From IMG/VR virus record IMGVR_UViG_3300029578_000018: DNA of 46,551 nt; one strand, given 5' to 3'. Origin of the DNA: a virus. The notes under the pieces were generated by a model. The model did not search any database. It saw only the letters and a list, made by a program, of their open reading frames with translations, and had not been told where the DNA came from. The position numbers and the translations under genes are program-made. The first letter of the stretch is position 1, and the number at the start of each line of letters is the position of its first letter. Shown in pieces: positions 25,108 through 46,551 of this stretch.

Positions 25108-25182
25108 TGGAACGGGCGGCTGGAGTCGAACCAGCACATACGGGAGTCAAAGTCCCGTGCCTTACCTTTTGGCTACACCCGC
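25108..25182 (-). tRNA. tRNA-Gln (anticodon UUG), CCA encoded
   Basis: Hand-folded 75-nt cloverleaf. Acceptor GCGGGTG/CGCCCGT, anticodon arm CGGGA-CTTTGAC-TCCCG, T arm GCTGG-TTCGACT-CCAGC. Confidence 0.85.
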
Positions 25183-25847: not shown

Positions 25848-26120
25848 CTATTCCAGCGCCGTCTCAACGCCGTATTCTTTGAGCATCTGCCGGATATCTG
25901 CCCAGGTAACGTACCCTTCCGCCACGCACTGAGCGGCGTGGTTTAGCTCCCCGGCAAGCTGCTGCACATCGTCCATCGGCGCATCGTGCTTATCGATCAG
26001 GACATACAGCATCAGATCTATTCCACGGTTCAGGCCCTCCACAATGCCGTTGCTGTAGGCTTTGTCTACGTCGGCCTGGGTGCGGGGAATTCTTCTGGGG
26101 TTAGTCTTGGGCATGGGCAT
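25848..26120 (-). CDS. Hypothetical protein (start uncertain: 26114, 26120 or 26138)
   Basis: GGAGGGAGG lies next to the ATGs at 26120 and 26114. Confidence 0.55.
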   Translation of the reverse strand: MPMPKTNPRRIPRTQADVDKAYSNGIVEGLNRGIDLMLYVLIDKHDAPMDDVQQLAGELNHAAQCVAEGYVTWADIRQMLKEYGVETALE

Positions 26121-26415
26121 CCTCCCTCCGTCTGCCATTCGCGCACCAGAAATCTGGTGGCACAGGGCAATCCACGCACGGGCCAAATGAACATATCAGA
26201 TCATCCACTGCGTAGTAGCTGTTCTCGCAATCTTTGCACCGCACCACCGGGACGGCATCAACGGTTGGAAGAACATACTTGATTATGTGATGTGCTTCTG
26301 TAAATCCCTCGGCAAGACTATCAAGCTGAGTTTCACCGTTGTGTATCAATTCTTTCGTTTCCTCGTATTCTTCGCCAAACAGTCTCAATACTTCATCAGC
26401 GTCAATCAGCCGCAT
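26101..26415 (-). CDS. Hypothetical Cys-rich phage protein (104 aa, MRLIDADEV...VPVVRCKDC)
   Basis: Start moved to the internal ATG at 26415. This pattern is common in Clostridia-type phages. Confidence 0.6.
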   Translation of the reverse strand: MRLIDADEVLRLFGEEYEETKELIHNGETQLDSLAEGFTEAHHIIKYVLPTVDAVPVVRCKDCENSYYAVDDLICSFGPCVDCPVPPDFWCANGRRREDAHAQD

Positions 26416-26725
26416 CGCTGCCACCTCCGTCCATTTTCGCGCCGCAGTTGGGGCAGTAATTCGACAGAACAAACTCGTCGTTGCAGTCATAAACGGCCTC
26501 CTCTTTGCAGACAGAGCAGATATATCCGCCAATCGGATCTCGTCCTGCAACTGCGGGGTTCCATCCGGTCATTTCGCTTTCGCGAATAGGCATCCACCGC
26601 CCATGCACCACCGGGGCCACATCAGCGGCGGGCTCTGCGAGGATGCATTCCACCGCGCTTCCACACCCGCCGCACCAAACGTTCAAATGCTCAATTGCCG
26701 TGCGGCGCTCAATGTATTCAGCCAT
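26402..26725 (-). CDS. Hypothetical zinc-ribbon protein (107 aa)
   Basis: CGGCG...CSVC...CPNCG motifs. Confidence 0.6.
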   Translation of the reverse strand: MAEYIERRTAIEHLNVWCGGCGSAVECILAEPAADVAPVVHGRWMPIRESEMTGWNPAVAGRDPIGGYICSVCKEEAVYDCNDEFVLSNYCPNCGAKMDGGGSDAAD

Positions 26726-26736
26726 TGTCTGCCCTC

Positions 26737-26928
26737 CTAAAACAGTTGAATGAGCTTTAGACCCTTCTCAAGGTCATGGCTCTTGTCGAACCGTTTTGCA
26801 TCGTCCGCCGTGTGAACGTCCGCCAAGTCCTCACGCGCTTTTGCAACGCGATCACTTAGGGTTTGGAGCTCGGCATCCAATTCTTCGAGAATCGAAAGCA
26901 GTTCATCCCTTTTCTTTTCAACGTCCAT
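26737..26928 (-). CDS. Small coiled-coil protein (63 aa)
   Basis: ORF in the operon, charged and helical. Confidence 0.5.
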   Translation of the reverse strand: MDVEKKRDELLSILEELDAELQTLSDRVAKAREDLADVHTADDAKRFDKSHDLEKGLKLIQLF

Positions 26929-27448
26929 CCTTCATCGCCCCCAATGCGTTCTCCGCCTCCTCGCGGGTGCGGAATACCGTCTTGCCAAATCCGTTTAGCG
27001 ATATGCCATACTCCCGCCCTCTGGCTCCTATTGGCTCAAGGCCAATAAAGCCGATTTTATTGCCCATACCAATCTGCTTGACCTCGCACTCGCTTATATG
27101 CTTATCCGTATCCAGCAAGGCGAACACCCGCTGGCCCACCTTGCACGGCAGTACCACCAGCCGCCCGTCCCTGTCGGCCTTGACCAGTTGGCGGAACCTG
27201 TCCAGTGCCTCGCTGGCTTTCTGCTCACCGATCATGTCCTCCAAAAACACCCAATAGGCGTGGAACTCCTCCGGCGTAAGTCCCGTGTCCTCGTAGGCGG
27301 CGAGGCGGCTCCACGCCGCTTCTTCCCACTTGCAATTCATGGCGCAGTTTCCGCCAACCCCGATGCATTCGGGGCCGCAAAAATGTGTGCAGCAGATACC
27401 GTTTTCGTGCGATGTTTGCTTGCTATGTTTCGTCAGTCGTTCCATCAC
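26918..27448 (-). CDS. Hypothetical Cys-rich phage protein (176 aa)
   Basis: ORF with an LAAYEDTGLTPEE motif common in phage early regions. Confidence 0.6.
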   Translation of the reverse strand: MMERLTKHSKQTSHENGICCTHFCGPECIGVGGNCAMNCKWEEAAWSRLAAYEDTGLTPEEFHAYWVFLEDMIGEQKASEALDRFRQLVKADRDGRLVVLPCKVGQRVFALLDTDKHISECEVKQIGMGNKIGFIGLEPIGARGREYGISLNGFGKTVFRTREEAENALGAMKDGR

Positions 27449-27696
27449 TACATCTCCTCCTCAAGCATCTCCTTGATTTTCCCGATGTTCTCCCGGATGA
27501 TATCCATGGTCACATCGCTCTGGATATTGTGCGCAAACACGGCCTTATCCGTTGCATCTGCGTTGTAATATCCGGTAAAAACGGTCCCATCCGGCGTTTT
27601 TCCTGCAATGCACATGCGTTCCGCCCCGATATCCACTACCGTTCTCAGGGAGTTTTCCAGCCATTCGGCCCAGGGCTGGCGTGTGATATCGTTCAT
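27448..27696 (-). CDS. Hypothetical protein (82 aa)
   Basis: ORF tightly packed in the operon. Confidence 0.55.
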   Translation of the reverse strand: MNDITRQPWAEWLENSLRTVVDIGAERMCIAGKTPDGTVFTGYYNADATDKAVFAHNIQSDVTMDIIRENIGKIKEMLEEEM

Positions 27697-28011
27697 TCAC
27701 TCCACCTCCTGCATCCAAAACTCGCGGCAGCAGCCGAGGCATCCAGCAGAACGATTCAAATCGCAGATATAATTTTTGTCAACATTTCTTGGGCACATCC
27801 CAACAACGCCATCATCGCCCATCATGCAGTTAGGCCACTGCGCTAATAACACGCTCTGCCGCGTCTTGCGCGGGTGCGCAGTTGCCCATTCTTCCACTTC
27901 TCGGACCACTTCTTCTGCCGGAGTGTCCATGTAAAACATGCTGTTCTTAGGATGTTCGCCCGTCCGGGCAAACATCCGGCGTTGCTCTTTCACAAACCTT
28001 ACAGCGTCCAT
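27697..28011 (-). CDS. Hypothetical Cys-rich protein (104 aa)
   Basis: ORF tightly packed in the operon. Confidence 0.55.
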   Translation of the reverse strand: MDAVRFVKEQRRMFARTGEHPKNSMFYMDTPAEEVVREVEEWATAHPRKTRQSVLLAQWPNCMMGDDGVVGMCPRNVDKNYICDLNRSAGCLGCCREFWMQEVE

Positions 28012-28012
28012 A

Positions 28013-28411
28013 TCATTCTCCTTTTTCCAGCATATCAGCCGCCGTTCTTAAATCATCCGGTAGCATAATAGGTACTTCGTAGATATTCGCATCGGCCCAT
28101 TCTGCATATTCGCGCAGGGTTTCGGCAATTTCTTTATGTGATGGCTTCACGGGGCCTCCTTTCACACCGCCACACGGGATGGGGAATCCAAGCCCCTGCA
28201 CGTTGGCGATTGGGATAGGGCGCAGGATAGCAGCCACCTCCTGGCTCGCCCGCCTGTTCCATTTCTCAATAACCAGTTTCCGGCTGTTGTATGTGCCTGT
28301 GTTGCAGAAACACTTCATGCACCGAACGTAGAACCGCGTTGTTGTCAGCCCCCACTCTTCAAACGCTCTTGCCTCGCCCCCGCAGAACGGGCAATATTTA
28401 AGCTCCTGCAT
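28013..28411 (-). CDS. Lar-like restriction-alleviation protein with a C-terminal extension
   Basis: KYCPFCGGEA...VRCMKCFCNTG...VIEKWNRRA matches the Lar family pattern. The start is set at ATG 28411. Confidence 0.6.
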   Translation of the reverse strand: MQELKYCPFCGGEARAFEEWGLTTTRFYVRCMKCFCNTGTYNSRKLVIEKWNRRASQEVAAILRPIPIANVQGLGFPIPCGGVKGGPVKPSHKEIAETLREYAEWADANIYEVPIMLPDDLRTAADMLEKGE

Positions 28412-29789
28412 TCCATTCGCCCTCCCGCACCTGGAATGCATCGCCGAGCTGCACCGTCTCCGGGAAATTGTGCTGCGTGGTCTGAATGGCGTACTTGTCG
28501 ATCTCGGTTGCGTAGTATCTGAGCAACCACGGCTGTACGCCCAGCTTGTCCAGGGCGATATGGCCGCAGCTCATTCCGTCGTACATCGACAGCACTTCCA
28601 CCGGCTCCGCCGTCAGCCCTTCGAAGTGGCTCATAATGTGGGCGATCACATCCACCGTCCAACCGTTGCCCAGCATCTTGTAGGCTTGGCTGTCGCTCAC
28701 CGGGAAAACATACTCCTCCGGCACGGTCTGGAGGCGCATACACTCGCGGACCGTCAGTTTGCGAATGATGTAGCAACCGTCTCGCAGTTTGATTGGGTAC
28801 TCCTTGCCCTTGACGGTGATACGCCCATCCCGTACCTGATAGATTGGCATATCCTGCGTCCCGCAATATTCGTACATTTCGCAAGATGTCGTCAGACAGT
28901 CGCTTTTCTCCCGCATGGCGCGGCCCCGGCGGGCCTTGCTCCCCGGCATAGCAAGGTCTACACACTCGCCCGGTGCGATGTCCACATACCCCTGCTTTGT
29001 CGCCTCTCGTACCCGCACCGGCACGGCGTAAAGCCCGGTTTTTGCGCCCACGCCCCCACCATTCCCGCACAAAGTCACACTCTTACCGTCCGGTGAATAA
29101 ACACGGTATTGTTGGCTGTCTTGCTTTTTGTCTTTCGCGTCGTTTTCAATGGTGCCGATACGGACAGGCACGGCTATGCAGTCGTATTGCTGCTTCGCGG
29201 GGTTCGGATTGTTTATCCTCGGCACAAGGTTGTTTTCGAGTTTTCCCATGTGTGCGTCAGCGGTTCGTGCTTTTCCGTTTTCCATTCCATTGACGATGAT
29301 TGGCTCCGCCGCACCGTTAAAACTGAATTTTCCGGGTTCTTTTATGGTCTTAATCACGGAGGACAGCCCTCCATGCGGGCCATGCGACGCCCGAAGGGTA
29401 TATGCTTTTTCTCTCCACGCAATGCCCGTTTCCAGAATGTCCCGTAACAGGATTCCCCTGTCCTCCGGTTGCTCAACACGGACTTGACTGTATGTACCGT
29501 CCGGGTTCCGTCTGCCAACCCAGTAAATGCGCTGTCGGTTCTGTGCGGAAACCAAAGCAGAGTTGATAAGCACCGGCTCCACGCCCAACTCTGCCGTGAT
29601 CTGCGCCCGGATGGCGGGAGACATGGATTTGTTGTTCTCATACAAAAAATAGTCCGGCTTGTACTTATCCCGAGCGATCCGGTAATTCAAAAACAGTTCC
29701 CAGCCGATGCCCTCCGCCGTCGTCTCGCGGTGTTTGGTCTGGGAGATACTCCAATGGGTGCAGGGGCTTCCGCCGATAAGCAATTTCAT
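28398..29789 (-). CDS. DNA (cytosine-5)-methyltransferase with permuted motif order (IV-X, then I-III)
   Basis: GGSPCTHWS (IV) at aa 6-14, YENN (VI), QNRQR (VIII), LTVRECMRLQTVP (IX) and LGNGWTV (X). LSMYDGMSCG (I), ATEID (II) and QLGD (III) follow at aa 399-452. Confidence 0.8.
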   Translation of the reverse strand: MKLLIGGSPCTHWSISQTKHRETTAEGIGWELFLNYRIARDKYKPDYFLYENNKSMSPAIRAQITAELGVEPVLINSALVSAQNRQRIYWVGRRNPDGTYSQVRVEQPEDRGILLRDILETGIAWREKAYTLRASHGPHGGLSSVIKTIKEPGKFSFNGAAEPIIVNGMENGKARTADAHMGKLENNLVPRINNPNPAKQQYDCIAVPVRIGTIENDAKDKKQDSQQYRVYSPDGKSVTLCGNGGGVGAKTGLYAVPVRVREATKQGYVDIAPGECVDLAMPGSKARRGRAMREKSDCLTTSCEMYEYCGTQDMPIYQVRDGRITVKGKEYPIKLRDGCYIIRKLTVRECMRLQTVPEEYVFPVSDSQAYKMLGNGWTVDVIAHIMSHFEGLTAEPVEVLSMYDGMSCGHIALDKLGVQPWLLRYYATEIDKYAIQTTQHNFPETVQLGDAFQVREGEWNAGA

Positions 29790-32290
29790 CGTTTTTCACC
29801 CCCCATCAGGTCGAAAAGCGAAATGTTCATGTCCTCCTGCTCGTACTCCTTGAGATAGCCCACAGCATCGCGGAAATACCCGTTGTTCAGCTCGATGGTA
29901 TACCCGCGCCGCCCGGCCTTCATCGCCTCCAGGGCGACAGTGCCAAGTCCGCCGAAGGGGTCCAGGACCAATTCCCCGGGATTGCTGTAGCGATTGATAA
30001 GCCGGTCTACAATATCCAACTGGAGCGGGCAAACGTGCATCTGCTGGCGGCGCTGGCTCTGCGTGGTGTTTAAGGTTCGCATGCGGTTGATATCGTCCCA
30101 TACCTGATCTGTCCAACTCCCAGGCGCTACCACCATAAACGTGGCCGGGAGCTTGTCCTCTGCGTCCAGTTCTTTCGCCATGCGGACATGTTCCGCGTAA
30201 TCGTACACGGTCCCTCGGCTGTACTCCCGGTATGCCGCCTGGATTTTGCCGGTGTCCATGGCCATGATCTCTTCTTTGGTCATGAGCCGGTCGCCAGATG
30301 AGCGCCAGAACCCGTGCGCGTCAATCTGCCACTGTGCCCGGGTGTATTCGTCCTTGCCCTTTACCACCTTTTCGTCTGCGTAAGCCTTGCTGCGGTCCGT
30401 AGGCAGCTTGCGGAACAGAAGAATGTATTCCGGGCAGCCCACCCCCATCTTTGAGCCGTCCTTGCACTGCTCCGTCCAGCCCAGCCGGTATGTCTGGTTG
30501 TTCTCTCGCACCACGTCCGTCACAACGGTGATCATGCCGAAATACGCAAACCCGTGCTGCATGTAATGCCGGATGCACATCGCGTGGAACGGTTCCATGG
30601 TTGGCATTCCCATCCCGGTGGCGTTGCCGAACAGCACCCGGTCCTTGACGTGGCAGCAGAACACACGCCCGGGCTTCAACACCCGCAGCAGGTTGGGAGT
30701 CAGATAGCCCATCTGCTCGAAAAAACGCTTGGTGTCCTCGTTGTGTCCGAAATCGTTGTAACTGGGCGTGTACTCATAGTGGTTGGAAAACGGGATACTG
30801 GTCACAATAAGGTCCACGCTGTTTTCCGCTATCTTCGCCGTTTCCTCTACGCAGTCGTTATTCACGGCGATGAAATTCTTTCCCTTGATTTCCACTCTTT
30901 CAACTCCTATGCTCCGGCTCATTTTCTCCGTCTGTGCCTCACCGGAAAGCCCGTATTTCTGGACGATCTCCCGCATTCGTGCCTGCATGTCGTTGTGTTG
31001 CTTCCACTTCTGCATCAGGACAAGGTAGATGGGGTCCTCCGCTTCTGTGTAGATGATGTCGATAATCACCTGTTCCGTTTGCAGGAACCTGTAAATTCGG
31101 TGGATTGCCTGAATGAAATCGTTGAACTCATAGTCAATCCCAATGAAGATAGCCCGGTGGCAGTGCCTCTGGAAATTGCACCCGGAGCCGGACAGGCTCT
31201 TTTTCGTTGCAAACAGTCGCGTTCGCCCTTCCGAAAAATCTATTACCCGGCGCTCTCGCTCGTCGTAGTCCATACTACCGAAGATGTCCACGGTTTCCGG
31301 CAGGGCTTTCTTGATTTCGTGGCGCTCCGCTTCCAGATCATGCCACAGGACGAAATGCGCTTCGGGGTCGCTGTCTACGATTTCTTTGGCTACGGCGACG
31401 CGCCGCTGAATGCTGTCACGCTTCTCACGCGCGGCCTCCGCCAGGGAGGTTGCCGCGTCGTTCATCAGCTTGTACTGCCCATCCCGGTCCGTTTCTGTGC
31501 CATAGTCGTCCGGAACGATATGCACCCGGACGTCAAGCGGGGGTAGGTCATATCCGGTATCGTCATATCCTAAATCGGAGGGCTTCCCCACGAACAGCGC
31601 CCACGAGGATACCCAGAGCCAGAACTCATCTTCTTTGTGCGGGTACAGGGTAAGGTTGTTTGCCTTGGTGCTGTCGCGCTGGAAAAAACGTGTCAGGGCC
31701 TGCCCCGTGTCCATGATCTCCAGATATCCAGCATAGTGGATAAGCTCCTTGTACCGGTTGGGTGACGGTGTGGCCGTGCAGACCAGTTTATACTTCACGC
31801 CCCGGAACTTGGGCAGGAAGGTTTGATATGTCTTGCTCCCAAAGCTGCGCAGCACGGACGCTTCATCCAGCGCTACGGCCGTGAACTGCGTCGGGTCGAT
31901 GTCGCCGTCACGGACACGCTCATAGTTTGTCATGACGATCTCAGCATCTGTTTCGGCCAGGTCCTGCATTTTGGTGATATACACCGGAGCCGGATAGCCC
32001 AAGATCTTTTCGGCGTCACGGGCAAACTCCTGCCGCACCCCCAGCGGGAGCACGATCAGCGCCCTGCCTCCATCGTGTGCCACCGCCTGGTGGCAAAATT
32101 CGATTTCCTGCACCGTTTTACCCAGGCCGAACGACTGGAACAGCGCCCGCCGTCCGCCTCGCAGTGCCCAGATTACAGAATCCCACTGGTGCGGTTTCAG
32201 GGCCGGGTTGATCTTTCCCGGGTCAACGTCGAATCCGCTTTTCTTGGCCAAGACGATCTTGGATTTCAGAAATTCCAGATATGTTTCCAT
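29786..32290 (-). CDS. SNF2/DEAD-type helicase fused to a beta-class N6/N4 DNA methyltransferase
   Basis: GLGKT (aa 55-59), DEAS and a helicase-C region. These are followed by DLIVTSIPFS (motif IV variant, nt 30788..30799) and LDPFGGLGT (motif I) near the C-terminus. Confidence 0.8.
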   Translation of the reverse strand: METYLEFLKSKIVLAKKSGFDVDPGKINPALKPHQWDSVIWALRGGRRALFQSFGLGKTVQEIEFCHQAVAHDGGRALIVLPLGVRQEFARDAEKILGYPAPVYITKMQDLAETDAEIVMTNYERVRDGDIDPTQFTAVALDEASVLRSFGSKTYQTFLPKFRGVKYKLVCTATPSPNRYKELIHYAGYLEIMDTGQALTRFFQRDSTKANNLTLYPHKEDEFWLWVSSWALFVGKPSDLGYDDTGYDLPPLDVRVHIVPDDYGTETDRDGQYKLMNDAATSLAEAAREKRDSIQRRVAVAKEIVDSDPEAHFVLWHDLEAERHEIKKALPETVDIFGSMDYDERERRVIDFSEGRTRLFATKKSLSGSGCNFQRHCHRAIFIGIDYEFNDFIQAIHRIYRFLQTEQVIIDIIYTEAEDPIYLVLMQKWKQHNDMQARMREIVQKYGLSGEAQTEKMSRSIGVERVEIKGKNFIAVNNDCVEETAKIAENSVDLIVTSIPFSNHYEYTPSYNDFGHNEDTKRFFEQMGYLTPNLLRVLKPGRVFCCHVKDRVLFGNATGMGMPTMEPFHAMCIRHYMQHGFAYFGMITVVTDVVRENNQTYRLGWTEQCKDGSKMGVGCPEYILLFRKLPTDRSKAYADEKVVKGKDEYTRAQWQIDAHGFWRSSGDRLMTKEEIMAMDTGKIQAAYREYSRGTVYDYAEHVRMAKELDAEDKLPATFMVVAPGSWTDQVWDDINRMRTLNTTQSQRRQQMHVCPLQLDIVDRLINRYSNPGELVLDPFGGLGTVALEAMKAGRRGYTIELNNGYFRDAVGYLKEYEQEDMNISLFDLMGGEKR

Positions 32291-40990: not shown

Positions 40991-41431
40991 ATGCGTCTGC
41001 CTCCTCTCTAAATGTGTGAGTTTTCATTGACTGCGGCGGGGAAATGTGGTACCCTTTCGATAGCCCTTGTGGCAAAATCAAAGGAGGTGGCCTTTTGACC
41101 AAACTTTTGACCTTGCCCGTTCCAGACCGTGGGGACACGGCGTGATGCAAATGGGCTTTGCGGAACCCATCCCGCAAAAGTGAGCGGCACCCCCAAGAAG
41201 CACGGCTGTTTCATCGTGTACCTCTCGTAGAACCGGCAAGCGTCCACGCAGTGAAGCGTGTAAAAAAACGCAGCTTGCCACTGTCGGGTCATGCAGTGAA
41301 GCAGGTATCAAACTCACGCCGACGGTGCGGAAGGTTGCAAGGGTGTTCTGGTGAACAAATTTGGGGAAACCCCGACCGTGGAACAGCACGGTCGGGGCAT
41401 TTCTATCCCCGCCGCAGTCATTGCCCCGAAC

Positions 41432-41445
41432 CTCACAAATGTGAG
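41432..41445. promoter_or_regulatory. Operator candidate: perfect palindrome CTCACA-AA-TGTGAG
   Basis: It abuts the -35 of the 41455 promoter. The half-site TCTCACA recurs at 41601, 41610 and 41626. Confidence 0.5.
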
Positions 41446-41454
41446 ACTTCATAC

Positions 41455-41483
41455 TTGACACGCCGCCCAAACCGCGTTACAAT
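41455..41483 (+). promoter_or_regulatory. Promoter TTGACA-17-TACAAT reading toward the repressor gene
   Basis: Hexamers and spacing read directly. Confidence 0.55.
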
Positions 41484-41563
41484 GACTCTGCCAAAAGAAA
41501 TTGTTAAAGCCGCTGTTATGGGGGGCTGGTGTTTTTGTACTCTTTTTTCTGGGGCTTGCCTAT

Positions 41564-41592
41564 ATGATACCTCAGGAATCTCATTTTGTAAA
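41564..41592 (-). promoter_or_regulatory. Promoter TTTACA-17-TATCAT reading toward cro
   Basis: Read on the minus strand. It lies to the right of the plus-strand promoter, so the two 5' ends would overlap. Confidence 0.4.
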
Positions 41593-41632
41593 GTACAAAA
41601 TCTCACATTTCTCACTTTTGGAGAATCTCACA
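41579..41632 (+). promoter_or_regulatory. Four direct TCTCA(C/T)(A) half-sites (operator candidates)
   Basis: Copies at 41579, 41601, 41610 and 41626. Confidence 0.4.
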
Positions 41633-41652
41633 ATTTTCAGGAGTGTAATTTT

Positions 41653-42000
41653 ATGTTCTGGTCAGTCTTTGTTGGCCTGTGCGCAAAACGAGAGGTATCA
41701 CCAAATGCCGTGGCAAAAGCGCTTGGGCTGTCGTCTGGGTCGGTAACGCTGTGGAAAAATGGAGCGGTGCCAAGGTCAACGACGATAAGGAAAATCGCAG
41801 ATTATTTCGGCGTATCTCCGGAGTCGTTCCTTGCAGAAGCCGATGATCTGGCCATAAAAAAAGAGCGTCCCGCCGATGGCGAGACGCTGACGATGGAAGA
41901 TTGGGAAAAACAGGTTGAACAGTGGACAGATGGCCAAATTTTGGAAGCAATGCAGAAACTTGTGGAAATACAGCAGAGGAGGCGCAACAGTGGACGTTGA
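41653..42000 (+). CDS. CI-like XRE-family repressor (115 aa)
   Basis: EVSPNAVAKALGLSSGSVTLWKNGAVPRSTTIRKIADYFGVS is an HTH_3 pattern. AGGAG lies 9 nt upstream of ATG 41653. Confidence 0.75.
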   Translation: MFWSVFVGLCAKREVSPNAVAKALGLSSGSVTLWKNGAVPRSTTIRKIADYFGVSPESFLAEADDLAIKKERPADGETLTMEDWEKQVEQWTDGQILEAMQKLVEIQQRRRNSGR

Positions 42001-42274
42001 GCTGACAAGGAGTGCAAAAAAGGCGCTGGCAGCTCTCTACACGCATTACTGCCAGCGCCAAGCATACGGGCAGTCGAAGCAAAACTCCACATTCTTCATG
42101 CCGATTCCAGAAGCAATAAAGGATGGATTACAGGAGATTTGCGCTGCCGGATATGCCGAGTATTCGCCTTTTGGTGGTGTTATCCTAATGGATGCGGGCA
42201 TCGCCTACATGGATAAGCAAGACCCGGAAACTGTCCTCATGTGGGATTTACATGACGGACAGGTCATAACCTAA
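41990..42274 (+). CDS. Hypothetical protein (94 aa, GTG start), translationally coupled to the repressor
   Basis: AGAGGAGG lies 9 nt upstream of GTG 41990, which overlaps the repressor stop. Confidence 0.5.
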   Translation: MDVELTRSAKKALAALYTHYCQRQAYGQSKQNSTFFMPIPEAIKDGLQEICAAGYAEYSPFGGVILMDAGIAYMDKQDPETVLMWDLHDGQVIT

Positions 42275-42472
42275 CTTGTTTTTCACAAATGCGGCAAAGT
42301 CACTGGCTTTGTACAGGTTAGGTGTAAGCAGGGCATTAGACACACTGAGCCGGACACCGCACATATCAGATTTGAAGTCAATCTTATCTCCGATAAGCGG
42401 TGTTCCATTTACGAGGACGAATGTCTTTTCTCCGTCAGATGCAATCAGGACTTTTGCGTTTGATAATTCCAT
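42248..42472 (-). CDS. Hypothetical protein (74 aa), convergent with the repressor operon
   Basis: AAGGAG lies 10 nt upstream of the ATG. It has a 27-nt 3' overlap with the 41990 ORF. Confidence 0.5.
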   Translation of the reverse strand: MELSNAKVLIASDGEKTFVLVNGTPLIGDKIDFKSDMCGVRLSVSNALLTPNLYKASDFAAFVKNKLGYDLSVM

Positions 42473-42924
42473 GTTTTTCTAACTCCTTCCATAATCGTCT
42501 TTGTTCTTCCTGTGTGAGTGTCTGGACGGCGGCTATGAATAGTTCTCGCTTGCTGCACTCGTCCATTTGTTCTATTATATCATACTTTTCGCAAAAACAC
42601 ACGATTTATTTCCCCCTCGTAAAAAAATATTTTCACCTATTCCCCCAAATAGGACAAATATTGCATACCGCGTTGCCCTATAATAGGCAACAAAGGGATA
42701 AATCTTGGGTTATGTTGGCCCCGCCGCCCCCGCACCGGGCGGCAGGGCCGATATAGCAGATAGCCCATCAGGCTGTCATCTGCTACGATTTAAGCATAGC
42801 AGTGCCGCGAAACCCTGTCCACATGCAATCCGGGGAACCGTGCGACCGATGTAGGGCGAATGGTCCCCGCATTTGAGATTCTGTCCCGCCACAGGTGAAA
42901 TCTACTTTATGGAGGCGAATAACT

Positions 42925-43497
42925 ATGTCTGCGTTGCAGGAAATTGCGGAAAACATTGAGCAATACCCAAAAAAGATTCGCGAGGCAAAGGAAAAGAAAA
43001 GGTACACCATCAACGACATCGTGGATCTGTCCGGCGTGTCAAAGTCCGCCGTGTCAAAGCTCCTGGACGGATCACAAATGGACCCGAAGCTCTACAACTC
43101 GGTCGCCATGTGCATGGTGCTGGATCTGTCGCTTGACGAACTGTTCGGGTTGGACAAGCCTATAGATCACCCGGAATCTATGCAGGCCAGGATACATCAA
43201 CTGGAGCTGGAAAACGCGCATTTGTCCGGTAACGTAAAAAGGCTGGAAGAAGTAAACGCCATACAGAAGGACCAAATGCGCACTCGCAAGCCGGTCATCT
43301 TCGTCCTGCTTGGTATGTGCGCCGTGTTGGCCATGTGCCTGGTGGCGTACCTGTTTATTGACTCGCAAATCACGGCCCAAGGGCTTATCCGCAACGGACA
43401 GCCCACCGCCGTGGCGTGGTTTGTTATTGTCATAGCAGCCACTGCGGTGATAGCCTCTACGGTCATCATCTCTATGGCCCTGCGCAAAAAAGTGTGA
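42925..43497 (+). CDS. Membrane-anchored XRE-family HTH protein (HTH, coiled coil, two TM helices)
   Basis: YTINDIVDLSGVSKSAVSKLLDGS is an HTH. ELENAHLSGNVKRLEE is a coiled coil. VIFVLLGMCAVLAMCLVAYLF and AVAWFVIVIAATAVIASTVIISMAL are TM helices. GGAGG RBS. Confidence 0.7.
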   Translation: MSALQEIAENIEQYPKKIREAKEKKRYTINDIVDLSGVSKSAVSKLLDGSQMDPKLYNSVAMCMVLDLSLDELFGLDKPIDHPESMQARIHQLELENAHLSGNVKRLEEVNAIQKDQMRTRKPVIFVLLGMCAVLAMCLVAYLFIDSQITAQGLIRNGQPTAVAWFVIVIAATAVIASTVIISMALRKKV

Positions 43498-43524
43498 AAA
43501 AAGGCCGTCCCACATGGGGCGGCC
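43497..43524 (-). terminator. Minus-strand terminator between int and the lysogeny genes
   Basis: ggccgtccc/ggggcggcc stem with a T-run on the minus strand only. Confidence 0.4.
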
Positions 43525-43549
43525 ATGTCACAATATGAAGGAGGATACG

Positions 43550-44632
43550 ATGAACTGCGTTAAGTGCGGTGGAGTTTTGCCGGATGGTGCTCTGTTTTGC
43601 CCAGCATGCGGAAAGCGGCAATCCAAACAATCCCGCAGGGCCATCAAGAGGCCCAACGGATCCGGCACGGTTTATAAACTGCAAGGCCGAAGGAGCCGCC
43701 CGTGGGTAGCGGCAAAAAGTAAAGTGATTATAGGGTATTACCCCACGCGCAAAGACGCGCTGGAGGCTCTGGAACGCTTGGCAGGGAAGGATTTGACAGA
43801 GCGGTATAATATGACCTTCAGGGAAGTATTTGAAGCCTGGAAGGAGGAACATTATAAGGAAATAGGCCCCCGTGGGGTGGAGTCATATAACCGGGCTTTT
43901 GATGTGTTCCAGCCGCTCCACGATGCAAGATTCCGCAGTTTGCGGACAGCAGACTTTCAGGCGGTCATGGACAAATATGCGGATAAATCCCACAGCACAT
44001 GCAGCAAGTACAAGCAGCTTGTTACGCAGATGTCCGCATGGGCCATCCGGGAAGAAATTGCCACAACAAGCTTTGCAAAATTTATCCATCTGCCAGAAAA
44101 CGTGAAAAAAGAAAAGGAAATCTTTTCCGATTCGGACATTGAGAAACTGGAGAAAAACGGAAGCGACACCGCAAAAATTATCCTGATGCTAATTTACACG
44201 GGCATGAGAATCGGAGAGCTTTTCGGTCTCCCGCTGGCCGACTATCACGAAACCTACGTCATCGGGGGAGAAAAGACCGCCGCCGGGCGCAACCGGGCCA
44301 TCCCCATCAGGCCGGAGGGCCGGGCATACTTTGCATACTTTGCCGCCAGGGTGAAGGGTGCGCTTTTGCTGTCCGGCTATACCGGCCAACAGGTACCGGC
44401 AAATTTCCGTCGACGGGATTACTACCCGTTACTGGAAAAGCTCAAGATCGAGCGGAAAACCCCGCATGCCACACGGCACACCTACGCCAGCTGGGCCAGA
44501 AGATCAGGCATGGCCACGGAGATTTTACAAAAAATATTGGGCCACGCCGACTATTCCACAACGGCAAATATTTATGTCCACACAGATATTTCTGAGCTGA
44601 TTGCAGCTGTAGACACGGCTGGCAAAAAATAG
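43550..44632 (+). CDS. int: Tyrosine integrase with N-terminal zinc ribbon and AP2-like arm-binding domain
   Basis: CVKCGG...CPACG, RPNGSGTVYKL, and the catalytic TGMRIGEL / HATRHTYAS / LGHADYSTTANIYVH. AAGGAGGA RBS at ATG 43550. Confidence 0.9.
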   Translation: MNCVKCGGVLPDGALFCPACGKRQSKQSRRAIKRPNGSGTVYKLQGRRSRPWVAAKSKVIIGYYPTRKDALEALERLAGKDLTERYNMTFREVFEAWKEEHYKEIGPRGVESYNRAFDVFQPLHDARFRSLRTADFQAVMDKYADKSHSTCSKYKQLVTQMSAWAIREEIATTSFAKFIHLPENVKKEKEIFSDSDIEKLEKNGSDTAKIILMLIYTGMRIGELFGLPLADYHETYVIGGEKTAAGRNRAIPIRPEGRAYFAYFAARVKGALLLSGYTGQQVPANFRRRDYYPLLEKLKIERKTPHATRHTYASWARRSGMATEILQKILGHADYSTTANIYVHTDISELIAAVDTAGKK

Positions 44633-44635
44633 CGC

Positions 44636-44656
44636 GTTACTAACACGTTACTAACA
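44636..44656 (+). repeat. attP arm-type sites: 2 x GTTACTAACA (P arm)
   Basis: Copies at 44636..44645 and 44647..44656. Confidence 0.7.
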
Positions 44657-44707
44657 AAAAAAGCAGGCTATAGAATCGTGGAACTTTTTGGCGGTAAAAG
44701 CAAAGAA

Positions 44708-44739
44708 AAAGTCCCAGTTTTACATGAAACTGGGACTTT
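44708..44739. terminator. 13-bp-stem hairpin serving as terminator for int (+) and for the reconstituted tRNA (-)
   Basis: aaagtcccagttt / aaactgggacttt. The minus strand is followed by TTTTTCTTTGC. Confidence 0.7.
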
Positions 44740-44741
44740 CT

Positions 44742-44786
44742 TGGTGCGCGGTACAGGACTCGAACCTGTGACCCCATGCACGTCAA
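44742..44786 (-). other. attP core: 3' part of a tRNA gene (variable region, T arm, acceptor 3' strand, CCA)
   Basis: The reverse complement reads GGGTC-ACAGG-TTCGAGT-CCTGT-ACCGCGC-A-CCA. No matching 5' acceptor strand lies upstream. Confidence 0.75.
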
Positions 44787-44897
44787 TTATAGGCCAATAG
44801 CAAACAAACAGTATTGTGCGGCATTATGTGGGATTAAGCGGGGATGTGTGGATATTTTGACGCGATAAGTTGCAAAGTACCGCTTTGTCCCACGTCA

Positions 44898-44918
44898 GTT
44901 ACTAACAGGTTACTAACA
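44898..44918 (+). repeat. attP arm-type sites: 2 x GTTACTAACA (P' arm)
   Basis: Copies at 44898..44907 and 44909..44918, with the same 11-bp phasing as the P arm. Confidence 0.7.
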
Positions 44919-44920
44919 AA

Positions 44921-45397
44921 TTACACCGACGCAATTCCGTGGTAGTAGGCAGACAGCTTTTCTTTCGGGCCTTTCGCGTCCTTGTCAAACAGAAATGCCT
45001 TGGCCATATCAGCAAAGAACTCAGGCTTGTTTACGCCATACTTTGCCGCCACGGAGCAGTAGTCCGAATACATCATATTCATGGCTACGTTCCAGTCATC
45101 CTCGGTGATGTGCGCAAACACGACACCGGCGTTGGCCGCGAGGGGGGTGGTCTGCTGAACAGTCCAATGCCCGCCGGTGGTGCCGTCATCATTTTTCATG
45201 TCGGTATTCCATGCTTTAGCATCCTCTTTGGAAAAATCAGCGGATCCACACATACATTTACCGAGTTTATCGACCTGTTCCCAGCACTCCGCCATTCCTC
45301 GGACGGCAGCAGCAGAGCGTTCGGACACAGGCAGTTCCATGTACGCAGACAGTTCTTTTTCCAGTTTTTGCTTGTATTCTTTCAGGTTGTCCTTCAT
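44921..45397 (-). CDS. Hypothetical protein (158 aa)
   Basis: ORF with an NDDGTTGGHWTVQQT motif. It is the last gene before attP. Confidence 0.6.
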   Translation of the reverse strand: MKDNLKEYKQKLEKELSAYMELPVSERSAAAVRGMAECWEQVDKLGKCMCGSADFSKEDAKAWNTDMKNDDGTTGGHWTVQQTTPLAANAGVVFAHITEDDWNVAMNMMYSDYCSVAAKYGVNKPEFFADMAKAFLFDKDAKGPKEKLSAYYHGIASV

Positions 45398-45407
45398 GTT
45401 GCACCCC

Positions 45408-45806
45408 TTACAGCTTCTCGACGGTGACGGCCATGTTGTTTACAACTGCCGCAACGCCGCCCAGGACCAGGGACAGAATAGAGCTTTCACACCCGCAAGC
45501 ATTGCGGACGATGGCAGAAATGCCAATATTAACAGTGCCGTTGTCGGCGGCGGTCTGGGCCCCCGTCGCTCCGATAATCGGAACGCCGTCCTTTTGCGCG
45601 GTGATAGACACGGTTCCAGCCGCCGAGGGAGACAAGGTGCCGGAGACGTTGACGAGGTAATACCCCTGTCCGCACAGTGTAATGGCATTGCCGTCTTGCT
45701 TGATGTTGCAGCCGTACCGGCGGGTAGTATTCCCAACAGGGATGATGCCGTCAACCGGGACGGTTGCGCCGGTGGTGTTGGTGGTATAGATTGCAGATTT
45801 ACTCAT
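45408..45806 (-). CDS. BclA-C-terminal-domain-like (C1q/TNF-like jelly-roll) protein without collagen repeats
   Basis: The pattern GNAITLCGQGYYLVNVSGTL...ITAQKDGVPIIGA...LSLVL...AVTVEKL resembles exosporium BclA C-domains. The call rests on recollection only. Confidence 0.4.
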   Translation of the reverse strand: MSKSAIYTTNTTGATVPVDGIIPVGNTTRRYGCNIKQDGNAITLCGQGYYLVNVSGTLSPSAAGTVSITAQKDGVPIIGATGAQTAADNGTVNIGISAIVRNACGCESSILSLVLGGVAAVVNNMAVTVEKL

Positions 45807-45842
45807 AGAATCATTCCTTTCTAATCAGGCTGATTTTTGTCC

Positions 45843-45877
45843 ATTCAAAAATAGCGGGGCGACTAATGCCGCCCCGC
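45843..45877 (-). terminator. Intrinsic terminator after ORF 45922..46527
   Basis: gcggggcg/cgccccgc form an 8-bp stem. TATTTTTG follows on the minus strand. Confidence 0.6.
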
Positions 45878-45921
45878 ATGCCTCGCCGGATAGGGCGTCA
45901 CTTTATTCCGATTGCCGGAAA

Positions 45922-46527
45922 TCAGATGTTGTTGCAGCCGCTATTGCAGCCGCAAAACGGAGAGGGGCCCGCATTGTAGGTGTATCCGCTGGGATAACGC
46001 ACTACGCCGCACAGCTGGTCCCTGATAAACAGCTGATTGTTGGCCTGTTCCAGCTGGGCGATACGGCCCTCCAGCTGAGATTTCTCCAGGGCGGCAAACT
46101 TGGCGTCAATGTTGGCGTTGACGCTGTCAATAGCCCGCTGCGTGGTGCAGCAGCACTCCGACATCTGAGACTGGATGTTGTTTCCGGTCTGCATAATGGC
46201 CATGTTCGTACCGTTCTGCGCCAGGGCCATTTCTTTGCCCAACTGCCCGACATTGCCCTGCATTTCGTATCCCAAGTTGCAGATGCCGTTGCCCACGTTG
46301 GTCAGACGGTCATTCAGCTGGCCAAACTGCTGGCCGAAAAGGATTTCCTGTTGAGACGAAGCGGTGGCATACTGGCCAAATTCGCCTTGCCGGTTCATCC
46401 CCCAGCCTCCGCCCATAAAGACGAAAAGGAACAGGATGATAATCCACCACGCGCCGCCCCCCCCAATTGTCATTGCCGCCATCAACAGCGGCCCGAAGAT
46501 CAGAGAGGGAATAGTTGTCCATTTCAA
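45922..46527 (-). CDS. Membrane protein: two N-terminal TM helices, Q/N-rich coiled coil, Cys-rich C-terminus (201 aa)
   Basis: AAAGGAG RBS. The ORF crosses into the terminal repeat and contains a G8 tract (46457..46464). Confidence 0.7.
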   Translation of the reverse strand: MKWTTIPSLIFGPLLMAAMTIGGGGAWWIIILFLFVFMGGGWGMNRQGEFGQYATASSQQEILFGQQFGQLNDRLTNVGNGICNLGYEMQGNVGQLGKEMALAQNGTNMAIMQTGNNIQSQMSECCCTTQRAIDSVNANIDAKFAALEKSQLEGRIAQLEQANNQLFIRDQLCGVVRYPSGYTYNAGPSPFCGCNSGCNNI

Positions 46528-46551
46528 AACTCCTTTCTTGAAATTTTTATA
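46440..46551. repeat. Terminal direct repeat, copy 2 (identical to 1..112)
   Basis: Base-for-base identity. Confidence 0.95.

Follow-up and report, generated by a model that had tools for sequence, protein, structure and literature searches.

The 46,551-nucleotide stretch of viral DNA analyzed here (IMG/VR record IMGVR_UViG_3300029578_000018; hereafter, the window) carries on its minus strand a complete gene for a C5 cytosine DNA methyltransferase (C5-MTase) whose chain is circularly permuted, with motifs IV through X first and motifs I through III last. The gene is a single uninterrupted open reading frame (ORF; 28398..29789) of 463 amino acids (aa) plus a stop codon, with the N terminus MKLLIGGSPCTHWS, and its product matches Pfam PF00145 in two separate stretches (E = 1.1e-27; 97.8 bits against a cut-off of 22). 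Rigid motif order is a textbook feature of C5-MTases, and to our knowledge only two natural exceptions, the M.BssHII type and plant DRM, are generally cited. On every sequence criterion save motif order the protein fits the superfamily, and its motif layout as read from the sequence places it outside both known natural permuted classes. Very probably, the product is a functional C5-MTase from the DNMT3-like phage "Dcm" clade, with a circularly permuted chain. With less assurance, we propose that this chain represents a third natural C5-MTase permutation topology, absent from the searchable literature, that arose once and then radiated.

In place of the canonical order from I to X, which most of the superfamily follows but on which the fold does not depend, the motifs run IV-VI-VIII, a presumed target-recognition domain (TRD), and IX-X-I-II-III (all coordinates that follow are on the minus strand unless otherwise stated). 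Motif IV (LLIGGSPCTHWS, aa 3–14, 29748..29783) lies at the new N terminus on strand β4, which AlphaFold2 (AF2) predicts at residues 2–7; it aligns with DNMT3A residues 86–97, and its catalytic dipeptide, Pro9-Cys10, aligns with the Pro-Cys of DNMT3A. Motif VI (YFLYENN, aa 47–53, 29631..29651), with Glu51 in the ENN of residues 51–53, falls inside the DNMT3A alignment of residues 3–92, and motif VIII (SAQNRQRIY, aa 81–89, 29523..29549) contributes the invariant Arg85 and Arg87 within QNRQR (aa 83–87). The region that follows (aa ~111–335, 28785..29459) is assigned as the TRD on the basis of length variation among family members, lower identity and a higher rate of nonsynonymous substitution (dN). 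Beyond it lie motif IX (IRKLTVRECMRLQTVP, aa 342–357, 28719..28766), which aligns with M.HhaI 271–286, and motif X (QAYKMLGNGWTVDVIAHIMS, aa 368–387, 28629..28688; GNG at 374–376), the helix that ends canonical enzymes, which aligns with M.HhaI 297–316 and DNMT3A 264–286.

A short linker, HFEGLTAEP (aa 388–396, 28602..28628), then connects the old C terminus at the motif X helix to the old N terminus at β1. Its limits were drawn from the tails of canonical relatives, which end a few residues past the motif X helix and begin 2–6 residues ahead of VLSLFDG, and from the X-to-I spacing; judged from these sequences, its length roughly equals that of a canonical C-terminal tail and N-terminal lead-in combined. 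Motif I (VEVLSMYDGMSCG, aa 397–409, 28563..28601; YDGMSCG at 403–409), the loop after β1 that binds S-adenosylmethionine (AdoMet), aligns with DNMT3A IRVLSLFDGIATG and with M.HhaI 15–23, and AF2 places a strand at residues 397–402 with a predicted local distance difference test score (pLDDT) above 90. Motif II (YYATEIDK, aa 425–432, 28494..28517) aligns Glu429 with M.HhaI Glu40 in SNEWD, and motif III (TVQLGDAF, aa 445–452, 28434..28457; GD at 449–450) aligns Asp450 with Asp60 in M.HhaI GD(60)ITQV. The chain stops at the tail QVREGEWNAGA (aa 453–463, 28401..28433), a remnant of the canonical III-to-IV connector in the de-permuted alignment described below, at the point where canonical enzymes go on into LLIGGSPC.

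Three comparisons carry the assignment of motif order. When the protein was searched against PDB sequences with phmmer, DNMT3A (2qrv) aligned in rearranged order, with query residues 387–450 matching 7–69, 3–92 matching 86–180 and 365–387 matching 264–286. In the alignment with M.HhaI, query residues 400–456 match 15–66 and residues 342–387 match 271–316. Finally, a de-permuted construct, in which aa 393–463 were placed ahead of aa 1–125, was aligned to the N-terminal parts of five canonical proteins (P0151, P0157, P0181, P0184 and P0162). This alignment runs unbroken through the join (QLGDAFQVREGEWNAGA followed by MKLLIGGSPC, against GDVFTADFTQFK--GVDLVCGGSPC), with a gap of 2 residues in P0151, P0157, P0181 and P0162 and of 4 residues in P0184, and therefore the break sits in the loop just ahead of β4 and nothing essential has been lost. 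The NCBIfam dcm model TIGR00675 behaves in the same way, as query residues 3–387 align solely to model positions 63–327, that is, after motifs I–III. The permuted motif order is far beyond chance, and the proposal of a preliminary description of this DNA, made from sequence alone, that a single intact gene encodes motifs IV–X followed by I–III is borne out by these alignments.

That description had also named two findings that would speak against it within the protein and its surroundings: an overlooked copy of motifs I–III upstream, and a C-terminal block unrelated to AdoMet binding. Neither was seen. A tblastn search of the whole window with the canonical N-terminal block returned a single site (28601..28434) and no second I–III block, and since an in-frame TGA at 29798–29796 lies 9 nucleotides (nt) 5′ of the methylase ATG, a longer N terminus is ruled out. 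The C-terminal block is homologous to motifs I–III of DNMT3A, M.HhaI and canonical phage relatives. We also considered whether the tail of the upstream protein, MNISLFDLMGGEKR, might be what is left of an earlier motif I copy that was deleted; this was rejected because methylase homologues follow a variety of unrelated genes whose products end differently and because the tblastn search revealed no second I–III-like segment in the window.

The same architecture recurs widely. Among the 120 best matches from a search of 5.8 billion proteins (56–94% identity; 405–594 aa), motif I follows motif X in every one, all are colinear with the window protein and the X-to-I spacing is 28 aa in nearly all. 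All but three begin MK/R-(L/I)-LIGGSPCT; two of these were called from a later start and one has a substitution in motif IV. A scan of one genome per species identified 153 genomes with relatives, and the best 80 match query residues 1–459 colinearly. These 80 are mostly Oscillospiraceae and other Clostridia and include the cultured isolates Flavonifractor sp. An92, Oscillibacter sp. 1-3, Anaerotruncus colihominis JM4-15, Acutalibacter caecimuris and Robinsoniella peoriensis. At 53 sampled loci the frame always opens 1–3 residues before LLIGGSPC, and the upstream genes vary. The preliminary description had called for a search for homologues with the same permutation and described permuted C5 enzymes as rare. 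Such homologues are plentiful, and for this layout rarity does not hold in sequence space: a phmmer search of representatives clustered at 50% identity retrieved 1574 proteins at E ≤ 1e-30, and among the best 150 of these ~60 are permuted and ~33 canonical.

Lengths in the family run from 321 to 662 aa, and the variable region accounts for the differences. Separately, four members (L036, L048, L063 and L080; 557–781 aa in total) have long C-terminal extensions past motif III, and thus further domains can be added to the new C terminus. Some relatives, although not the window protein, contain an intein with a LAGLIDADG homing-endonuclease domain directly before the motif IV catalytic cysteine (LIGGSP/CFVAGT...VVHN/CTYWS), such that the residue at +1 after splicing would be the catalytic Cys. 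Carriers include P0227, P0257, P0131, P0193 and ~10 other representatives, and both permuted and canonical members are among them. The best PHROG match of the window protein, phrog_17284 (E = 2.4e-63), spans the IX-X-I junction and is labeled "unknown function"; thus, parts of the family are filed as unknown in phage annotation resources.

Two groups of candidates were set aside. Seemingly full-length tblastn matches in cultured Vibrio, Proteus, Escherichia and Bacteroides phages were in fact enzymes of canonical order, their separate pieces having been merged irrespective of order. Short database proteins with motifs IV-VI-VIII only or X-I only were considered as natural split forms, but the majority probably derive from truncated metagenomic contigs. 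In the cultured-phage collection, OR777945 (Phage nd4) and MT836645 gave matches that are single colinear pieces by tblastn, and MT835543 and MT835730 are likely candidates for colinear matches.

Conservation was assessed in an alignment of 58 diverse permuted members, down to ~41% identity. Invariant residues include G7, P9, C10, T11, E51, N52, S81, A82, Q83, R85 and R87 in the first part of the chain and L345, G374, N375, W377, S401, D404, G405, E429 and G449 in the later motifs; R343, E349, C350, R352 and D450 are conserved in at least 90% of members. The hallmarks of the C5-MTase family (the Pro-Cys of motif IV, the Glu of motif VI, the Arg of motif VIII, motifs IX–X and motifs I–III) are all present, and the residues of the AdoMet-binding motifs I–III, D404-G405...G409, E429 and D450, are invariant or at least 90% conserved. 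In pairwise comparisons with 14 homologous loci, the ratio of nonsynonymous to synonymous substitution (dN/dS) was 0.04–0.13 for motifs IV–VIII, 0.04–0.25 for motifs IX–X and 0.06–0.20 for the relocated motifs I–III. The value for the relocated block is about the same as that for the rest of the core, and the C-terminal block is kept by selection. The variable region has lower identity and higher dN than the conserved blocks.

A first AF2 model, built with 47 close homologues, had a mean pLDDT of 43 and was unusable; a second was built with 58 more diverse permuted members. This model has a predicted template modeling score (pTM) of 0.71 and pLDDT values of 86–97 over aa 1–120 and 340–460, and its elements follow the expected order: β4, helix, β5, helix, β6, β7, then the helices of motifs IX and X, β1, helix, β2, helix. 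The best Foldseek matches in the PDB are M.HhaI (E = 1.6e-10), DNMT3A/B, M.HaeIII and tobacco DRM; structural matches in BFVD contributed little beyond the fold class. Since the PDB and BFVD alignments are sequential, they confirm the fold class but not that the I–III block takes the place of the N-terminal subdomain.

Of known systems, the closest to the window protein are canonical phage "Dcm" enzymes of the DNMT3-like kind, such as those of vB_vPM_PD06 (AYD85120.1; Escherichia), 1.147.O (AUR90578.1; Vibrio) and BT528P1 (Dmt; Bacteroides), as well as P0151 and P0157. All ten motifs are shared, as are the signatures VLS(L/M)(F/Y)DGMSCG, YATEIDKYAIQT..NFP, GGSPCT(H/Y)WSIAQ..RETT, YENNKSMS, LINSALVSAQNRQR and QAYKMLGNGWTV. 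Identity across the conserved blocks averages ~52% and reaches 67%, the phage niche is the same and the TRD is likewise variable. However, canonical enzymes run from motifs I–III into IV–X, whereas the window protein starts at motif IV and carries I–III after X, by way of the 9-aa linker.

Natural permutation has been described for the M.BssHII type, or "Type H," which comprises M.BssHII, M.Alw26I, M2.Eco31I, M.Esp3I, M2.BsaI and 22 more enzymes from REBASE (PMC5944983, 2018). These resemble the window protein in being natural single chains in which motif I follows X and in their presumed origin by tandem duplication and trimming. Nevertheless, their break lies in the variable region (IX-X-I-VIII) and leaves the catalytic domain contiguous, whereas the window protein is broken within the catalytic domain, in the stretch from motif III to IV, and the AdoMet subdomain is thereby parted from the catalytic subdomain. 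Its N terminus is 3 aa before motif IV and its variable region is internal, which sets it apart from Type H. In addition, M.BssHII-type enzymes are components of restriction-modification systems, whereas the window protein is probably a phage orphan. Plant DRM enzymes (DRM2, 7l4h; tobacco DRM, 4onj) belong, like the window protein, to the DNMT3-like clade and share its X-to-I fusion; their permutation point falls between motifs V and VI, and a descent from DNMT3 through duplication and permutation has been proposed for them (PMC3227630). In contrast to the window protein, which has motifs IV–V before VI, no extra domain and a prophage setting, DRM enzymes have the order VI-X-I-V, are eukaryotic and carry N-terminal UBA domains. 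The view of the preliminary description that the M.BssHII and DRM breakpoints differ from this one is borne out by the published orders for both.

Chains with a similar N terminus have been made in the laboratory. Active cpM.HaeIII variants with N termini between motifs II and IV came from directed evolution, and engineered permutants of M.MpeI and M.SssI are active (PMC5944983). The new N termini of the cpM.HaeIII and "Type B/C" cpM.MpeI and cpM.SssI enzymes lie between motifs II and IV, as in the window protein, although these enzymes are artificial. By analogy, the activity of the laboratory permutants indicates that the topology is compatible with catalysis, and the window family appears to be their natural counterpart. 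Split C5-MTases of the M.AquI type consist of two polypeptides and, like the window protein, build the fold from segments out of canonical covalent order; the window protein differs in being a single 463-codon ORF with full-length homologues.

How might the permuted chain work? The N and C termini of C5-MTases adjoin in the fold; hence, the usual Rossmann-type domain would be rebuilt from the re-ordered chain. The chain opens three residues before β4 and passes through the catalytic subdomain (IV–VIII), the TRD, IX–X and the ~9-residue linker to I–III. By the mechanism of the family, Cys10 would attack C6 of the flipped-out cytosine, the base would be activated by Glu51 and Arg85/Arg87 and the motif I loop, together with Glu429, Asp450 and motif X, would hold the methyl donor AdoMet.

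Several points weigh against a functional permuted methyltransferase. We infer the activity, the product (5-methylcytosine, 5mC) and the target sequence, and likewise the placement of the relocated block exactly where the canonical N-terminal subdomain lies. The TRD was poorly modeled, with pLDDT below 50 at aa 122–204 and 260–313. The TIGR00675 score, 83.5 bits, is lower than the cut-off of 100.65, and no curated full-length model vouches for the protein; as motifs I–III are out of order, such a score is expected for a permuted protein. Finally, cp122M.MpeI, the engineered permutant nearest to the breakpoint seen here, had low activity that was undetectable on gels (PMC5944983).

One possibility is that the protein folds correctly but is not an active 5mC methylase, and instead serves as a DNA- or AdoMet-binding decoy or regulator, or as an enzyme with a different substrate or a different transferred group. 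PMC5944983 argues that a chain permuted close to the AdoMet subdomain might bind AdoMet less well, and its cp122M.MpeI had low activity; in addition, motif VI has ENN in place of ENV, and motif IV has SPCTHWS in place of PPCQ. However, ENN and PCT(H/Y)WS are also found in canonical-order relatives, all catalytic and cofactor-binding residues are invariant across members that are ~40–95% identical, dN/dS in the conserved blocks is only 0.04–0.25 and the variable TRDs resemble ordinary diversification of specificity. We regard loss or change of activity as unlikely.

It is similarly unlikely that the enzyme is active solely as a domain-swapped dimer or oligomer, in which each catalytic subdomain would be completed by the C-terminal AdoMet subdomain of a partner chain. 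The new termini do part the β1–β3 subdomain from β4–β7, the linker is short, the closest solved relatives, DNMT3A/B, function as oligomers and the fragments of a split M.MpeI can complement each other in trans (PMC5944983). Nonetheless, the AF2 monomer is confident in both subdomains at the pTM given above, the linker approximates the sum of the canonical tails, as closure in cis predicts, and the X-to-I spacing is nearly constant among the 120 closest homologues. A functional C5-MTase closed from a single permuted chain remains the reading that we favor.

To examine the origin of the permutation, a neighbor-joining tree was built from the re-ordered blocks I–III, IV–VIII and IX–X of 82 sequences (239 columns). 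One branch splits all 23 canonical from all 59 permuted sequences, with a bootstrap of 90/100; the method is simple and the few columns beside the new termini could inflate this split. Sequences of the same group share 64% identity on average, against 52% for pairs of a permuted and a canonical sequence. These sequence relationships fit one permutation event followed by radiation. A canonical gene may once have been fused or duplicated in tandem, in frame, and then lost sequence from either end, which would put the break in the III-to-IV loop; the permuted form may then have radiated with many different recognition domains. Among the relatives is P0127, a 962-aa natural in-frame tandem of two complete canonical C5-MTases (I-X-I-X) separated by a ~30-aa acidic linker. 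P0127 is a plausible intermediate, with the architecture that the permutation-by-duplication model requires.

It is also conceivable that the phage/Clostridia clade and plant DRM both descend from one ancestral X-to-I fusion, a tandem I-X-I-X in the DNMT3-like clade, with differing trims that gave IV-X-I-III here and VI-X-I-V in plants, although we give this little credence. Two observations hint faintly at such kinship. Of the solved structures, DNMT3A/B match best in sequence, and DRM2 aligns without a break to window residues 365–451 (motif X, linker and I–III), with a length that differs by ~2 residues and a similarity that is weak (E ~1e-4). Structural constraints on linker length account for the DRM2 alignment equally well. 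Were the common descent true, plant de novo methyltransferases would owe their "domains rearranged" topology to a prokaryotic or viral ancestor.

The least probable explanation is that gene fragments were wrongly joined, or a tandem repeat collapsed, during assembly or annotation and that the permuted ORF is absent from the phage: although the window is a single sequence and tandem methylase fusions such as P0127 are known among relatives, local misassembly, which the preliminary description had raised as a concern, is excluded because the same order and start recur in all 120 closest proteins, from many samples, and the same architecture in 80 independently assembled species genomes, isolates included, with differing flanks, and all blocks are under purifying selection.

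The methylase gene is flanked by two genes on the same strand. Upstream lies a gene for an 834-aa fusion (29786..32290) of a SNF2-type helicase (aa ~25–420) and an N6/N4 DNA methylase domain (aa ~490–810), which matches Pfam SNF2-rel_dom, Helicase_C and N6_N4_Mtase and PHROG 16 (DNA helicase; E = 7.8e-123) and also, weakly, DISARM DrmD and other SNF2 helicases. The methylase ATG at 29789 shares ATGA with the stop codon of this gene (GAA AAA CGA TGA; GEKR-stop), an overlap that the preliminary description had reported and that translationally couples the two genes. Downstream is a gene for a Lar-like restriction-alleviation protein (28013..28441, likely start 28411; Pfam PF14354, E = 2.8e-11; PHROG 599, Lar-like). 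The 14-nt overlap previously described for this gene holds if it begins at the ATG at 28411 (MQELKYCPFCGG), and becomes 44 nt if it begins at the first ATG, at 28441; the start at 28411 is favored because the Pfam Lar match opens at residue 12 of the longer ORF. Further 3′ is a run of small cysteine-rich ORFs (26101–28011, minus strand) with zinc-ribbon-like CxxC pairs.

The window also encodes an integrase (43514–44632, plus strand), a replication initiator, a DnaB helicase, a large terminase, a portal, a major head protein and a tape measure, and is a temperate siphovirus-type phage or prophage. A tRNA-Gln gene (anticodon TTG; 25108–25182, minus strand) has the early/anti-restriction region on one side and the packaging genes on the other. 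From 41000 to 46551 the GC content falls to 0.47–0.54, and the GC and AT skews flip sign around the plus-strand integrase; this part is probably the lysogeny module and prophage end. Judging from context, the methylase would sit in an anti-restriction cluster, with the SNF2 and N6/N4 methylase fusion on one side and the Lar-like gene on the other, and would most likely act as an orphan methylase that shields the DNA of a gut Clostridia phage from host restriction enzymes. The diverse variable regions of the family would give different target specificities.

Full-text literature searches found no description of the IV-X-I-III order; REBASE itself lay outside these searches, and prior notice there is possible. 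A systematic survey concluded that natural permutation occurs solely in the variable region, leaving both domains intact, and recognized only M.BssHII-type enzymes as natural cases (PMC5944983). The window family would be missed by this 2018 REBASE survey, since its motif I pattern cannot match SMYDGMS. Members could also be under-called or mis-described in methylome work on gut phages and prophages, because the TIGR00675 score of the window protein is below cut-off, its Pfam match comes in two pieces and the REBASE pattern cannot match its motif I. With both close canonical relatives and a tandem fusion available for comparison, the family offers a test bed for the permutation-by-duplication model.

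Although the accepted picture of how C5-MTases work is left unchanged, the finding contradicts the published generalization on natural permutations and brings to light a large family that had been overlooked. Nature tolerates a break that falls within the catalytic domain and parts the cofactor-binding from the catalytic half-sheet, and with dozens of 50%-identity clusters, a wide variety of recognition domains and no fewer than 80 bacterial species, this topology has been evolutionarily successful.

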